Origin: Alphaproteobacteria bacterium
GTDB lineage: Bacteria; Pseudomonadota; Alphaproteobacteria; Rickettsiales; UBA998
DNA: 64,000 nt
Assembly: GCA_004292675.1 (NCBI GenBank)
Contig: RDXO01000015.1
Coordinates: 9,115-73,114, forward strand
Reading direction: 5' to 3'
A program made the translations under genes and the position numbers. Under the pieces are notes generated by a model that had not been told where the DNA came from, did no database searches, and saw only the letters and a list, made by a program, of their open reading frames with translations. Below, one piece after another: positions 3,933 to 63,988 of the stretch (position 1 is the stretch's first letter; each line of letters starts with the position of its first letter).

Positions 3933-4168
3933 CTCACCACCCTTCACATTATGTAAATATTGCACGCTACGCATTCGGTCTTATGCTCTCCCGCCTGCGG
4001 GGGAGCTAGTGAAGCAAGGATTTCTCAAAAGAAATCCGATGCTGAACAGTGGGGGGGCATTCTATCCCCCCACCCAATCATCTGCGGTTTTTCGTTGAAA
4101 AACCTTGATTCTTGGACTCCCCCGCAGACGGGAGAGTAAACCATTCCTACCTCATGAGAGGTGGTGGG
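3933..4168 (+). mobile_element. MITE family 1, copy 1 (~236 bp, five-hairpin non-coding element)
   Basis: About nine in ten positions match the copies at 55905-56143 (reverse orientation) and 63314-63551, by eye. It is flanked by a perfect 9-bp direct repeat, gtgtgacaa, at 3924-3932 and 4169-4177. Imperfect terminal inverted repeats: ctcaccaccc... and ...ggtggtggg. Confidence 0.75.
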
Positions 4169-4950: not shown

Positions 4951-6321
4951 TTATGATGATTTAATAAACGCTACCATCTCCGCTTTAATGCGACTGCGCA
5001 AAACATACAAAGCAATGATATTCGGCAATGCCATGCCAAGGATAAACAAATCCGCTAAATCCAACACAACCGAAAAATGGCTGATGCCCCCAATAAAACA
5101 TGCAACGATATAGAACATATAATAGATACGAATGCTAGATTTTCCAAACAGATGACACCATGCTATTTCACCATAATAGCTCCATCCGATCGTCGTGCCA
5201 TAGGCAAAGAGCAGAACGTTAAACGCCAACATTGCCGTAAACCACGGACTCACCGTCGCAAATGCCTGTGCTGCAATCACCACCCCATCATCAATAGTAG
5301 CGTTGATGTGTGCATTGGTCACCACAACCATTAAACCAGTGAGCAGCGCGATAAAAGCAGCAAAGAGCGGCTCTACCAACGCTAATGTTCCTTCATGAGC
5401 AGGGCTTTGTACCGTGGCAGCAGCGTGCGCAATCGGAGCAGAACCAAGCCCCGCCTCATTGGCAAATAAGGCACGCTTAAACGCCAAGGCAATCATCACG
5501 AACATACCCCCTTGCGCAGCTTGCGCCGTGAATGCTTCCGTCAGCATGGCGTGCAGAGCGCGTGGCACTTCCTCATAATTCACCGCGAGAATAATCAGGG
5601 TGCAGAGCAGATACATAATGCCCTTCATCGGTGCGACCGCCCCCGCCACTTTTGCAATACGCTTAATCGAACCAAACAATACTAATCCTACCACTAAGGT
5701 GAACGCCCCTGCCACAATCCATGGCTTATCCTGCAACCACGCTATTTGATGAGAAAAAATCTTCACCGTCTGATTGGCTTGAAACATGCTCCCCCCACCC
5801 ACAGCACCACCAAGGCAAAATACCGCAAATAATGTCGCAAGGGCGCGCCCTAACTTCGGATACCCACGTTCTTTGAACCCTGTTTGCAGATAATGAATCG
5901 GACCACCATAGATTTTTCCGTCCGCATCCACAGTGCGGTAACATAAGGATAACGTCACTTCGGCAAATTTCGTCGCCATGCCAAATATGCCCATCACAAT
6001 AATCCAAAAAATTACTCCCGGACCTCCCACCGCGACCGCCACCGAAACACCCGCAATCGATCCCAACCCCACTGTTGCAGAAACCGCGGATAACACGGCT
6101 TGAAACGGACTAATCTCCCCCACCTCAGAACGCGATGCAGGGCGACGTATCAAACGACACGCAGTGGGCAATAAACGCAGATTCACCCCACCAAGATAGA
6201 CAGTAAAGAACAAAGCAGCACAAACCAACCATGCGACAATAAAAGGAAAACCTGCTATATCATAAAATAATAATGAAGAGAGGATTTGTACTAAAAAAGC
6301 AAGGAAGGATTCTATCATCAT
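4951..6321 (-). CDS. alanine/glycine:cation symporter (AGCS family)
   Basis: 456 aa and polytopic. GGPGVIFWIIVMGIFGMATKFAEVTL is typical of the AGCS family. Confidence 0.9.
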   Translation of the reverse strand: MMIESFLAFLVQILSSLLFYDIAGFPFIVAWLVCAALFFTVYLGGVNLRLLPTACRLIRRPASRSEVGEISPFQAVLSAVSATVGLGSIAGVSVAVAVGGPGVIFWIIVMGIFGMATKFAEVTLSLCYRTVDADGKIYGGPIHYLQTGFKERGYPKLGRALATLFAVFCLGGAVGGGSMFQANQTVKIFSHQIAWLQDKPWIVAGAFTLVVGLVLFGSIKRIAKVAGAVAPMKGIMYLLCTLIILAVNYEEVPRALHAMLTEAFTAQAAQGGMFVMIALAFKRALFANEAGLGSAPIAHAAATVQSPAHEGTLALVEPLFAAFIALLTGLMVVVTNAHINATIDDGVVIAAQAFATVSPWFTAMLAFNVLLFAYGTTIGWSYYGEIAWCHLFGKSSIRIYYMFYIVACFIGGISHFSVVLDLADLFILGMALPNIIALYVLRSRIKAEMVAFIKSS

Positions 6322-55904: not shown

Positions 55905-56143
55905 CTCACCATCCCTCATGAGATATGAATGGTTTACTCCCCCGCCTGCGGGGGAGTCCAAGAATCAAGGCTTTTCAACGAAAAACCGCAGATGATTGGG
56001 TGGGGGCGAATAGGATACCCCCCCCACGGTTCAGCATCGGATTTCTTTTGAGAAATCCTTGCTTCACCAGCTCCCCCGCCTGCGGGGGAGCATAAGACCG
56101 AATGCATAGCGTGAAATATTTACATAATGTGAAGGGTGGCAAG
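55905..56143 (-). mobile_element. MITE family 1, copy 2 (reverse orientation, 239 bp)
   Basis: Flanked by a perfect 9-bp direct repeat, attacttag, at 55896-55904 and 56144-56152. Internal sequence is collinear with copies 1 and 3. Confidence 0.8.
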
Positions 56144-59806: not shown

Positions 59807-59842
59807 GGGCATATGCCTAAAAAAGTGGATGTTCCTGATGTG

Positions 59843-59969
59843 CTATAGTGCTTCCATTATATAATTACCGATCAATCGGCAATTATATAATGGTAAAAGC
59901 ACTATAAATCATATGATTATAGTCGTTCCTTGACATAAAAAATGAGTATTTTTTTGTCAAACGACTATA
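59843..59969 (-). repeat. palindromic repeat family 2, full copy (reverse arrangement)
   Basis: ctatagtgcttccattatataattaccgat-caa-tcggcaattatataatggtaaaagcactata, then aatcatatgat, then tatagtcgttccttgac...gtcaaacgactata. Confidence 0.7.
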
Positions 59970-60101
59970 AATAAACATGGTGGGCGTACCATAATTCACA
60001 ATCCTATCTCAAAGGAATATGGCTTCCGAGGATTGCGCCCAGCTATTAATAAAACTGTAACACAAGAAGCGCATAATGGAATTGACGGGAAGGAACATGC
60101 G

Positions 60102-60569
60102 ATGAGCGATGATATAGTGAAAGCAGTGGGCAAGCTAGAAGCTAATTATGAGCATCTGCGCGAACATCAACAAAAGCTAGAAGCAAGCATTGAAGCGATG
60201 CCCAAAAAGATCAATGATATGCTTGCGCAAGAATTGAAGAATCAAATAACAACCTTAAACGCCGACATAACTGTAAAAATTGGCAAAGTTCAATCTGAAC
60301 TGGAACTTAAACTGGGAAGAGTTGAATCCGAATTACCTAAAAAATGGGTTTTTTATCTTTGGGCTTTTAGCACTATGTTTGCACTCTTTAGTCTTATGTT
60401 TGGATTTGGATATTTTGTATATAACCAAACGGATAAAAATAAGCCTAACATTGATATAGTTGATTCTATAAATACTACTAATCAGTTGCTAACAGATTCT
60501 TTAGTGCAGCAGAACAAAACTATGGTAGATACCACTTCACCACAAACAGAGAAAAAAGTACAGCCATGA
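60102..60569 (+). CDS. hypothetical coiled-coil protein with one TM
   Basis: Start at the ATG preceded by GGGAAGGA. N-terminal coiled coil, TM WVFYLWAFSTMFALFSLMFGFGYFVY, and an AT-rich 3-prime half. Its stop overlaps the nrdR start (ATGA). Confidence 0.55.
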   Translation: MSDDIVKAVGKLEANYEHLREHQQKLEASIEAMPKKINDMLAQELKNQITTLNADITVKIGKVQSELELKLGRVESELPKKWVFYLWAFSTMFALFSLMFGFGYFVYNQTDKNKPNIDIVDSINTTNQLLTDSLVQQNKTMVDTTSPQTEKKVQP

Positions 60570-61130: not shown

Positions 61131-61774
61131 ATTTTCAAAAGAAATAGCTCGATTTTTTCATCATGCAACGCTGCAAGAGTCGGCACATCTTTATATTCCA
61201 CCGTATGCGCTAATTCATAACCGAAATCACGGCAGGCTTTTTGCGTACCTTTTGATGAGGCTTCTACCATTGCAACATCGAAACCCTTTTTACGTGCCAC
61301 CTCTAATGACATGCGCATGAGTTGGCGCAAATGTCCTTTGTTGCGCGCATCACGAACCGTTCCTGCAAAAAATAAATGATAAAATTTCAGCCCTTGTGCG
61401 TGCATGGCTTGCTCCATCACGCTTTCACCGTGGAGTTTGCCTAATAAATCAAATACAGGCTGCCAATAGCCTTCCCATTGTTGTTCATTAGGATAAGGTA
61501 CGTGATCCTCATTATTATCATCACAAAAAATAGTAGAAACCACACGATCACCTTCCACCGCAATCACCGATAACCCTTGTTCAATCGATGTATGCAATCG
61601 TGGGCGCAAAATATCTGCCGTTGCCTGATAGGGAATGTTGAGAAACTTCAACAATGGTTCATCAAGGAATGCCTCTGCTAAGCAATGCAGCGCAGATTCC
61701 ATATGGCAATGATCCAAAACTTTATATTCTGTTGCGTACTCTAATTGACGTGCTGCTAATGCCATGATGATCAT
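61127..61774 (-). CDS. GNAT-family N-acetyltransferase
   Basis: FFAGTVRDARNKGHLRQLMRMSLEVARKKGF fits the acetyl-CoA-binding Q/R-x-x-G-x-G/A region. Confidence 0.7.
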   Translation of the reverse strand: MIIMALAARQLEYATEYKVLDHCHMESALHCLAEAFLDEPLLKFLNIPYQATADILRPRLHTSIEQGLSVIAVEGDRVVSTIFCDDNNEDHVPYPNEQQWEGYWQPVFDLLGKLHGESVMEQAMHAQGLKFYHLFFAGTVRDARNKGHLRQLMRMSLEVARKKGFDVAMVEASSKGTQKACRDFGYELAHTVEYKDVPTLAALHDEKIELFLLKI

Positions 61775-61872
61775 TCTATATAGTTCGTTGAGTTATAATG
61801 CTGCTGTGCAGCATGAGACGCTTCAGTAACGGACAATACAGAAAAAGTCAATAGGAAATCTCTAGGGCAACT

Positions 61873-62571
61873 CTATAATGTTATCGTGCCATCAAAAACA
61901 CTATGCAATTTCGGGCTATGCAAGATGCTTGCAGGGGTTACCGTTTCCCGCTCCCACGGAATTCTCCCAAAATACCATATGCGCCAAAATAATAAATCTG
62001 CTTTCGGATTATTCGTCAACAGGGTGCGCATATTTTCTATTGTACCTAGCTCAATATTCAATGCTTCACTGACAACTTCATGCACATAGCGCGAGCAAAA
62101 TTGTTTGCGTGAATGCAGGTTAAAGCCTGTATCGTACCACCGCCCTAATTTTTTATTGGCCGCCTCTTTAATGGCTGCTTGTTGCGCCGTTGAAAGTGGA
62201 TCATGCAAGCGTTTGATTGCGACGCGATGATCTTTGGATCGTTTGAGGAACTTAGAAAATGGCGTCGTGGTAGAACGGGGGAAGGTACTTTCCGCCACGA
62301 TGGGTTCATCACCCGCAACATCAATAATGATCCCCACATGGTTTGTCCAACTTTGCGTATCTTTGGCTATTTTACGAAAAGGCAAAATATCAATATGAAT
62401 AAACACAATATCACCAACACGCAGTTCTTTTGATAAACTATCGATATGCATCTTATCCTCTCGATTATAATGTAGCGTTACCGCTCCGATTTCACGCGAT
62501 TCCGATGCATGAGCCAAGGGGGAGAGCATAAGCACGGTGAGTGCCAAAATAAATGATAGGATGTATTTCAT
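61873..62571 (-). CDS. secreted YiiX-like permuted papain/NlpC-P60-fold hydrolase
   Basis: GDIVFIH ... WTNHVGIII (His) ... QFCSRYVHEV (Cys), in the permuted order typical of YiiX/DUF830-like enzymes. Its N-terminal 32 aa are identical to those of the divergent creA-like gene. Confidence 0.7.
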   Translation of the reverse strand: MKYILSFILALTVLMLSPLAHASESREIGAVTLHYNREDKMHIDSLSKELRVGDIVFIHIDILPFRKIAKDTQSWTNHVGIIIDVAGDEPIVAESTFPRSTTTPFSKFLKRSKDHRVAIKRLHDPLSTAQQAAIKEAANKKLGRWYDTGFNLHSRKQFCSRYVHEVVSEALNIELGTIENMRTLLTNNPKADLLFWRIWYFGRIPWERETVTPASILHSPKLHSVFDGTITL

Positions 62572-62583
62572 GATCGTGTGATA
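62477..62583. repeat. left arm of the 107-bp inverted repeat
   Basis: Its reverse complement equals 62674-62780 at 106 of 107 positions (mismatch at 62576/62681). It covers 12 nt of 5-prime UTR plus codons 1-32 of gene 61873-62571. Confidence 0.95.
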
Positions 62584-62673
62584 GTTTGTTCATATTATTC
62601 CTTTATAGCGTGTTCACAAGCAAAATCATAGATAATTTGTATAATTTTTCTTGTATTGTACTCTAGTACAAGG

Positions 62674-62780
62674 TATCACATGATCATGAAATACATCCTA
62701 TCATTTATTTTGGCACTCACCGTGCTTATGCTCTCCCCCTTGGCTCATGCATCGGAATCGCGTGAAATCGGAGCGGTAAC
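62674..62780. repeat. right arm of the 107-bp inverted repeat
   Basis: See the left arm. It covers 12 nt of 5-prime UTR plus codons 1-32 of the creA-like gene. Confidence 0.95.
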
Positions 62781-63198
62781 AACGGGGTTTAAGATCATCG
62801 GGCCAAATCATAAAATTGCTATTGTTGCCTTTGATGATCCCAAAGTCAAGGGGGTTACGTGTTACGTAGCGCGTCCGAAAACGGGCGGGATTAAAGGTGG
62901 GCTAGGTCTTGCCGAAGACCCGTCAATCGCAAGTGTTTCATGTGTTCAAACAGGTGTGATTACTTATATTCGTCCTATTGAAGCCGATGAGAATGGCGAA
63001 GAAGTGTTTGATGAAAACCGCTCACTGATTTTCAAATCCCTTGAAATCATACGATTATTCGATAAGGTTACGCATAGTTTGGTGTATGTAGTGCGCACAC
63101 ATCGCGTGATTGAAGGTTCTCCCGATACATCCATATCGGTGGTCGCCCCTATGGCATGGAATGGCACTCCGCCACAAAAGCCTTTACTCGATGATTAG
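62686..63198 (+). CDS. creA: CreA-family periplasmic protein
   Basis: FKIIGPNHKIAIVAFDDPKVKGVTCYVARPKTGGIKGGLGLAEDPS is the CreA signature. Start set at MKYILSF (signal peptide ...PLAHA/SES); the track ORF begins 10 codons upstream. Confidence 0.85.
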   Translation: MKYILSFILALTVLMLSPLAHASESREIGAVTTGFKIIGPNHKIAIVAFDDPKVKGVTCYVARPKTGGIKGGLGLAEDPSIASVSCVQTGVITYIRPIEADENGEEVFDENRSLIFKSLEIIRLFDKVTHSLVYVVRTHRVIEGSPDTSISVVAPMAWNGTPPQKPLLDD

Positions 63199-63568
63199 AG
63201 CGGCATTACATCTATTGGTCATACCGGCGAAGGCTGGTATCCATAAACGACTAGCGTTACTGGATTCCTGCCTAAAGCAGGAATGACAAATGTGGTGGTT
63301 TTATGGGTTATACCTTGCCACCCTTCACATTATGTAAATATTTCACGCTATGCATTTGGTCTTATGCTCCCCCGCAGGCGGGGGAGCTAGTGAAGCAAGG
63401 ATTTCTTAAAAGAAATCCGATGCTGAACCGTGGGGGTGCATTCTATTCACCCCCACCCAATCATCTGCGGTTTTTCGTTGAAAAACCTTGATTCTTGGAC
63501 TCCCCCGCAGGCGGGAGAGTAAACTATTAATGTATCATAAGGAGTGATAAGGGGCTATGCAGAAGTCT
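63197..63568 (-). mobile_element. MITE family 3, second copy, interrupted by a MITE family 1 insertion
   Basis: The hairpins (ataccggcgaaggctggtat, attcctgcctaaagcaggaat) and the right terminus tatgcagaagtct match the reverse complement of 48282-48408. The left terminus is degenerate and abuts the creA stop codon. Confidence 0.6.
63314..63551 (+). mobile_element. MITE family 1, copy 3 (nested in MITE family 3)
   Basis: Collinear with copies 1 and 2. Flanked by gggttatac (63305-63313) and gggctatgc (63552-63560), a 7 of 9 direct repeat. The uninterrupted family-3 copy has a single ggtttatgc at that point. Confidence 0.75.
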
Positions 63569-63988
63569 CTATATATGCAAGTGAAAATAGCTCATGGATG
63601 GCACACGGGCATATTTCATGACATCGCGCTCTTCAAGATAGGTGACAGAATTATCGCGTGCATTGCTTAAGCGTATAATAAAACGTCCGTGCGTATCTTT
63701 GAAAATCGTAAAACGTCCCTCACCTATTCCATAGACATCGCGTACTTTCTGCTCACGCATAATTTGTTCCAAATAATGCATACGGCGCATATCAATATGT
63801 TTGAACATATTTTCTTGAATCGCGCTAATGAGAACGGGTTCATCGCTTACATCAGATTTTTTCACAGGCGCAGTCACAGCTAGTTTGGGAGTGTTGTACA
63901 CCTCATTCGTAGCTTGTTTATTCTGAGTGGTGAGCGCGCTTAGTTCCATACTATGCTCCTTCGGTGCATATGCTATCATTAGAGGCAA
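63569..63988 (-). CDS. hypothetical protein
   Basis: 139-aa ORF whose stop codon abuts the MITE terminus. No family confidently recognised. Confidence 0.45.
   Translation of the reverse strand: MPLMIAYAPKEHSMELSALTTQNKQATNEVYNTPKLAVTAPVKKSDVSDEPVLISAIQENMFKHIDMRRMHYLEQIMREQKVRDVYGIGEGRFTIFKDTHGRFIIRLSNARDNSVTYLEERDVMKYARVPSMSYFHLHI

Follow-up and report, generated by a model that had tools for sequence, protein, structure and literature searches.

Two divergent and otherwise unrelated genes in the window (the whole 64-kb stretch of DNA that was analysed) open with the same leader, and this arrangement is best explained by an old inverted duplication of the 5' end of creA, which would have been fused in frame to a neighbouring YebB-family hydrolase gene and would later have been homogenised by gene conversion. 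We assign a probability of about 0.7 to this explanation as a whole. The window was compared with a sister genome, MAG PH2015_06S_46_36 (contig RDZH01000028.1, locus L001), hereafter the sister.

Structure of the inverted repeat

The features of the locus are as follows.

61873 to 62451, minus strand: ancestral YebB-family permuted papain-like (Peptidase_C92) gene, read from Met41, 192 aa (NCBI TAE34708.1)
61873 to 62571, minus strand: extended ORF of 232 codons comprising borrowed leader, linker and hydrolase; the frame is open, also in the sister
62452 to 62476, minus strand: linker, formerly 5' UTR of the hydrolase gene and now codons 33-40 (LHYNREDK), preceded by the last base of codon 32
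62477 to 62583, minus strand: left arm, the creA 5' end copied in inverse orientation and placed in frame upstream of the hydrolase (ATG of Met1 at 62571-62569)
62584 to 62673, no strand: AT-rich spacer, 78-90 nt depending on the arm ends (TATAAT at 62640-62645, palindrome at 62656-62671)
62674 to 62780, plus strand: right arm, creA's own 5' end (5' UTR of 12 nt, tatcacatgatc; ATG at 62686; up to the second base of codon 32)
62686 to 63198, plus strand: creA-family gene, 170 aa (Pfam and NCBIfam CreA models)

Base-by-base comparison of the arms at 62477-62583 and 62674-62780 gave 106 matches in 107 bases, which confirmed the original prediction of a near-perfect inverted repeat covering 12 upstream nucleotides and 32 codons. 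A repeat search of the window returned arms of 113 nt at 62477-62589 and 62668-62780, 97% complementary and 78 nt apart. The arm core consists of 12 nt of 5' UTR and 95 coding nt, ATG included; position -5 relative to the ATG holds its sole mismatch (G at 62576, A at 62681), the first mismatches beyond it are at 62584/62585, and the third base of codon 32 falls just outside it (ACG against ACA, Thr in both). The 32 residues MKYILSFILALTVLMLSPLAHASESREIGAVT open both the hydrolase and the creA reading frames. The window contains exactly two occurrences of a 66-nt arm segment at three or fewer mismatches (0 expected, 100 shuffles), no third copy of the shared peptide was found in the 64-kb window, and the leader copies likewise number two in the sister loci. 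Past the shared block, the two proteins fall into different families, Peptidase_C92 (domain from residue 50) and CreA (from residue 28), and the gene remainders are indeed unrelated, as had been claimed.

The single mismatch has a consequence of its own, as 62681 A gives the creA side a further in-frame ATG, located two codons 5' of the start (ATGATCATG, read as MIM...). The hydrolase side reads ACGATCATG and is devoid of this ATG, and the hydrolase side of the sister has the ATG version. An origin of the arms from a MITE or other mobile element was ruled out, the arms being plainly creA sequence.

Assignment of the shared leader to creA

By profile score, the right gene is a member of the CreA family and not the equivalog. 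It was matched by Pfam PF05981 at 161 bits over residues 28-156 (gathering cut-off 25), and the E. coli CreA equivalog model NF008026 gave 165.7 bits, under its cut-off of 241. Both the Pfam and the NCBIfam models start within the shared block, and CreA homologues carry a signal peptide followed by the motif ...SRDIGAVST..., so that the 3' end of the block can be read as CreA domain sequence. The right arm encodes a signal peptide, with predicted cleavage after AHA (residue 22), together with the first CreA-domain residues. Gene callers place the start of creA differently and report a protein of 170 or 179 aa (window 62656-63198; L001 4974-5513).

The left gene had been called a YiiX-like hydrolase, a label that has to be replaced: it scored 88.6 bits with the YiiX model (NF007458, cut-off 216) and failed membership of that family, and with the YebB model (NF008547, cut-off 227) it scored 258.9 bits, residues 45-228 corresponding to profile positions 9-192. 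The score with Pfam PF05708 was 125.8 bits. The YebB profile starts near hydrolase residue 37, and the nearest hydrolase homologues (63-66% identity) are proteins of 192-195 aa whose first residue is aligned with Met41. In the short-form relatives L010, L012 and L015 an in-frame stop occurs 4-21 codons upstream of the start, and these relatives are therefore genuine short forms. About half of the family members, 60-61% identical to the window protein, have signal peptides of their own that are unrelated to this one; to judge from these leaders, proteins of this fold evidently work on either side of the membrane.

The CreA models that start in the block and the hydrolase relatives that start at the Met41 position together establish, at the level of sequence, that the leader is native to creA and was acquired by the hydrolase. 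The proposal that the hydrolase gene carries a captured 5' end was thus upheld.

Age of the duplication

Among 80 related hydrolase loci, creA was located within 3 kb in the sister alone, where the GNAT gene is adjacent too. Over the 10 kb that they share, the sister and the window are 87-97% identical, and the divergence between the two lineages amounts to about 8-12%. The gene order of the sister is that of the window, namely glyA, nrdR, GNAT and hydrolase, with creA diverging from the hydrolase. The junction, GTAAC followed directly by GCTACATTATAATCGAGAGGATA, is identical in both genomes and the 232-codon frame is open in both. The arms of the sister, at 14 differences in 96 bases, are 86% alike. 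The sister region was reproduced at 100% identity in three independent Logan assemblies (SRR7244344, SRR7244345, SRR7244353), and since the MAG and these assemblies reproduce the structure, the architecture is real and older than the lineage split.

As the sister has the identical junction and gene order and yet arms that are 86% alike, the duplication is, on this comparison, older than the split of the window and sister lineages. The synonymous identity of the window arms had been attributed to recent duplication or ongoing gene conversion. The former is excluded by the junction shared with the sister, and the latter agrees with the decay of the sister arms; the accompanying view that selection on the peptide was not the cause was also borne out, the sister having the same junction with arms that differ.

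A further observation was made directly 5' of the sister creA ATG, where a 19-nt direct copy GTAACAACGGGGTTTAAGA of creA codons 31-37 was found at 4980-4998 (also in L087-L091). This copy matches the window creA (62776-62794) at 19/19 positions and the sister's own creA at 17/19. Its start coincides exactly with the inner boundary of the inverted repeat, and it is in frame with the sister creA, the Logan caller reading MIVTTGFKN-MKN.... The microhomology GATCAT between creA codons 36-38 and the UTR/start suggests that the creA 5' end was once duplicated in tandem and that the 19-nt copy may be a remnant of this, and the coincidence of boundaries suggests that it was connected with the event behind the inverted repeat; more than two genomes would be needed to polarise the original rearrangement at the creA 5' end.

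Gene conversion between the arms and its direction

Differences between the arms over the 96 coding bases were counted as given below.

Window left versus window right: 1
Window right versus sister right: 9
Sister left versus sister right: 14
Window left versus sister left: 19

It can be seen that the paralogous arms are closer to each other than the orthologous arms in the window, which does not hold for the sister. The orthologous divergence of the right arm (9/96, changes distributed 1:0:8 by codon position) is the same as that of the creA body (39/417; 51/579 for the hydrolase body), and that of the left arm (19/96) equals the third-position divergence of the gene bodies. From orthologous divergence without conversion, about 10 differences would be expected between the window arms against the 1 in 107 observed (Poisson P about 5e-4). 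At seven sites both window arms differ from both sister arms, which is the classic pattern of concerted evolution. These counts demonstrate, as far as two sequenced lineages can, that the window arms were homogenised later by intrachromosomal gene conversion, and it is because conversion overwrote the hydrolase-side copy that every synonymous site matches.

The sister arms disagree at 13 sites, of which the window matches the sister creA arm at 12 and the hydrolase arm at one (p = 0.003). This 12:1 agreement identifies the creA arm as the conversion donor in the alignment, although with two lineages only, some of the polarity could reflect fast drift of the sister's left arm. The latter has 12 private changes distributed 4:3:5 over codon positions, against 2:0:37 in the creA body; taken as positions 1 and 2 versus position 3 (7:5), they are indistinguishable from neutral drift (p = 0.55).

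Proposed origin and use of the borrowed leader

We propose that the creA 5' end underwent an old inverted partial duplication, and that the duplicated piece would have run from the 5' UTR (at least 12-17 nt of it) through the start codon and the Sec signal peptide into the mature part, of which it would have taken in about 10 residues. The copy would have landed head-to-head before the YebB-family hydrolase gene, in frame with its former 5' UTR and native start Met41, before the window and sister lineages separated. The sister arms would then have drifted to their present likeness, and in the window lineage a later conversion from the creA arm would have overwritten the hydrolase-side copy across the whole homologous tract. 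A hydrolase mRNA started in the spacer would carry the translation-initiation region of creA, and such a transcript could yield a signal-peptide-bearing periplasmic hydrolase, possibly beside a cytoplasmic Met41 form.

By inspection, the leader in both window copies reads MK / YILSFILALTVLMLSPL / AHA-S (cleavage at the hyphen) with a hydrophobic core of 17 residues, and both copies have the positive n-region, the h-region of at least 10 residues and the small residues at -3 and -1 that are typical of Sec/SPase I substrates. The corresponding leader on the hydrolase side of the sister, MTNT...AYA-S, has lost the n-region lysine (Lys2) and is left with no positive charge; its seven replacements leave the hydrophobic core and the AxA site intact.

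The start at Met41 is equipped with the Shine-Dalgarno sequence GAGAGGA-taag, the only strong one among the starts examined (glyA, nrdR, GNAT, creA and Met1 are without). It lies in the linker (GAGAGGA, 62456-62462), which differs from the sister at 1 of 24 nt. Since most genes here have no canonical Shine-Dalgarno sequence, its lack at Met1 and at the creA ATG is no argument against translation from either. PGAP begins the hydrolase at Met41 in both genomes (192 aa), and the Logan gene caller reads the sister hydrolase as 232 aa (L001 4173-4871), so that different annotation pipelines lead to different predicted locations for the hydrolase.

The leading alternative holds that the left arm is a dead relic, untranslated within the 5' UTR or promoter region of a hydrolase that is cytoplasmic and made from Met41 only, the open frame being accidental and conversion of the arms proceeding regardless of function. 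The strong and conserved Shine-Dalgarno sequence at Met41 and the PGAP start there speak for it, as do the neutral-looking substitutions and the loss of Lys2 in the sister left arm, a prior of about 0.2 for an in-frame, stop-free junction arising by accident, and the example of the Ehrlichia ntrX partial duplicate, which is also thought to be unexpressed. On the other hand, the frame has stayed open in both lineages despite the 12 private changes, and the sister replacements spare the hydrophobic core and the AxA site. The arm also bears the working initiation region of creA, which should serve for the translation of any transcript from the spacer. The relaxed pattern is weak evidence for a relic, given that signal peptides as a rule evolve rapidly. 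We consider the relic a serious contender that falls somewhat short of even odds, and translation of the hydrolase from the borrowed start Met1 is slightly favoured on the present sequence evidence; both starts, Met1 and Met41, may well be in use.

Spacer, promoters and the question of an invertible switch

The spacer presumably carries the divergent promoters of creA and the hydrolase, and the promoter of the latter almost certainly lies in the spacer, beyond the left arm. An AT-rich spacer with a TATAAT-like box and a palindrome had been described, and in the window this description holds: the GC content is 26% against 46% for the window, the TATAAT box is present and the palindrome reads TTGTAC-tcta-GTACAA. 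The left 65-70 nt or so are conserved and collinear with the sister at about 8% divergence, below that of third codon positions. The creA-proximal 35-50 nt, palindrome included, are unconserved in the sister, and this part of the description is specific to the window. A scan for promoters and terminators found no promoter site above threshold inside the spacer; it gave 5 weak promoter-like sites against 2.1 expected, two of them symmetric and located inside the arms, downstream of the ATGs. An Rfam search of 61700-63700 returned no RNA family.

The original prediction had further envisaged an inverton-like promoter switch, and this idea went unsupported. In this reading the arms would be the recombination sites of a recombinase-free invertible cassette, and a flip of the spacer would swap the creA and hydrolase promoters, in a regulated or bet-hedging manner. 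Inversion by homologous recombination between the arms would be physically possible, the geometry fits, with identical 107-bp arms (the one mismatch aside) around the only possible promoter region, and the arms evidently interact, since they have undergone conversion. At a length of about 100 bp, however, inversion driven by homology is expected to be rare. Inversions between coding-region repeats of 85 and 298 bp are documented in the pneumococcal cod locus, where they need neither PsrA nor RecA and persist in psrA and recA mutants (PMC4948785). Against a switch, the conserved part of the spacer has, at the assembly level, the same orientation in the window and in four sister-lineage assemblies (the MAG and the three Logan assemblies), and no recombinase gene was found within about 5 kb of the repeat, where the neighbours are Ala racemase, formyltransferase, RpiB, SHMT, NrdR, GNAT, an unknown protein and flagellin. 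The sister arms, moreover, have decayed to a degree that argues against any selection keeping the repeat as switch sites. The switch is accordingly regarded as improbable. The more elaborate version, that frequent recombination holds the arms identical and also flips the spacer in some cells, and that the exchange of promoters is coupled to exported (Met1) and cytoplasmic (Met41) forms of the hydrolase, is likewise improbable.

The least credible reading is an assembly artefact, either a fold-back chimera or arms that the assembler collapsed or homogenised. It draws on the window-type sequence coming from one MAG contig and on the behaviour of de Bruijn graphs, in which perfect repeats that exceed k in length do not fix the orientation of the spacer between them unless individual reads cross an arm. 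It is made very improbable by the recurrence of this architecture, with its junction and orientation, in an independent MAG and in three independent Logan assemblies whose arms have diverged, by the one internal mismatch that the window arms keep, and by the normal orthologous genes as flanks. The window-type structure is known from a single assembly, and exact-protein look-ups of the hydrolase (232 and 192 aa) and CreA (170 and 172 aa) returned no second record of it. A metagenome-wide scan with a 19-mer common to all four arms gave only chance 20-mers with no protein homology.

Other observations in the neighbourhood

A REP/MITE-like element was noted in the window, in which the hairpin CTCCCCCGCAGGCGGGGGAG, rich in G+C, forms pairs spaced by about 131-134 nt at three sites (3986-4136, 55937-56090 and 63360-63519; 0 expected by chance). 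It appears to be mobile, because the orthologous intergenic region of the sister has no counterpart of the copy that lies downstream of creA. Between glyA and nrdR, which are 21 nt apart in the sister, about 760 nt are inserted in the window (59807-60565). The insert has an ORF at 60033-60569 on the plus strand for a 178-aa protein with a coiled-coil plus transmembrane look, the only family match being weak and MapZ-like. Downstream of creA, a 139-aa ORF (63569-63988, minus strand) has no Pfam or NCBIfam match and is kept in the sister at 97% nucleotide identity, there adjoining a flagellin gene.

Implications

If the proposed history is correct, the locus would be a clean and datable natural example of a bacterial protein gaining an export signal, in which a short inverted duplication of a neighbour's 5' end made a chimeric start in one step. 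The two sister lineages would illustrate two fates of the duplicate, decay and homogenisation by gene conversion, and a bacterial case would be added to a mostly eukaryotic literature on chimeric genes. For annotators it serves as a warning, as start calls (192 or 232 aa; 170 or 179 aa) hide an ambiguity on where the protein is located. Overall, the locus is best viewed as fairly ordinary bacterial gene tinkering, and no new mechanism, system or genetic switch is revealed by it.

Comparison with known systems

The nearest documented case is the ntrX duplicate of Ehrlichia ruminantium, likewise an alphaproteobacterial gene with an inverted partial 5' copy close by that is ancestral and under conversion. 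That nearby inverted partial duplicate is ancestral to the compared strains, and parent and copy agree within a genome and differ between genomes at some sites, which was read as recurrent gene conversion between inverted repeats; the copy, 421 bp long and without a start codon, is found at a distance of about 2 kb and is regarded as unexpressed (PMC9937504). The copy in the window differs in that it comprises UTR, start codon and signal peptide, lies about 80-90 bp away in head-to-head orientation and is fused to another gene.

A shared upstream region and leader on otherwise unrelated mature proteins also brings to mind the Erp and Elp ('OspE/F-like leader peptide') lipoproteins of Borrelia burgdorferi. 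The Borrelia upstream homology box and leader were spread by recombination. Those proteins form a family encoded in many copies on the cp32 prophage plasmids, and their leaders are of the lipoprotein type, with a lipobox; the window has two copies, which are chromosomal, adjacent and inverted, with an SPase-I type leader (AHA-S) and no lipobox Cys. In Borrelia, otherwise unrelated mature proteins are described as having a near-identical upstream region and leader (PMC12242104, citing Akins et al. 1999).

Invertons (fimS, the Bacteroides and C. difficile switches) and pneumococcal hsdS resemble the locus in having inverted repeats around a regulatory or coding segment. The locus is unlike them in that it has no recombinase nearby, one orientation at the assembly level and far longer arms, and the arms are a decaying gene fragment in the sister lineage. 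The origin of chimeric genes by partial duplication, reviewed mostly from eukaryotic cases (PMC3449122), offers a further parallel, as a partial duplicate there recruits neighbouring sequence and a new N-terminus results. A literature search found no description of a bacterial head-to-head signal-peptide capture. What is particular here is the geometry, in which the copy stands head-to-head with its parent, some 80-90 bp away, and is fused in frame to a different gene.
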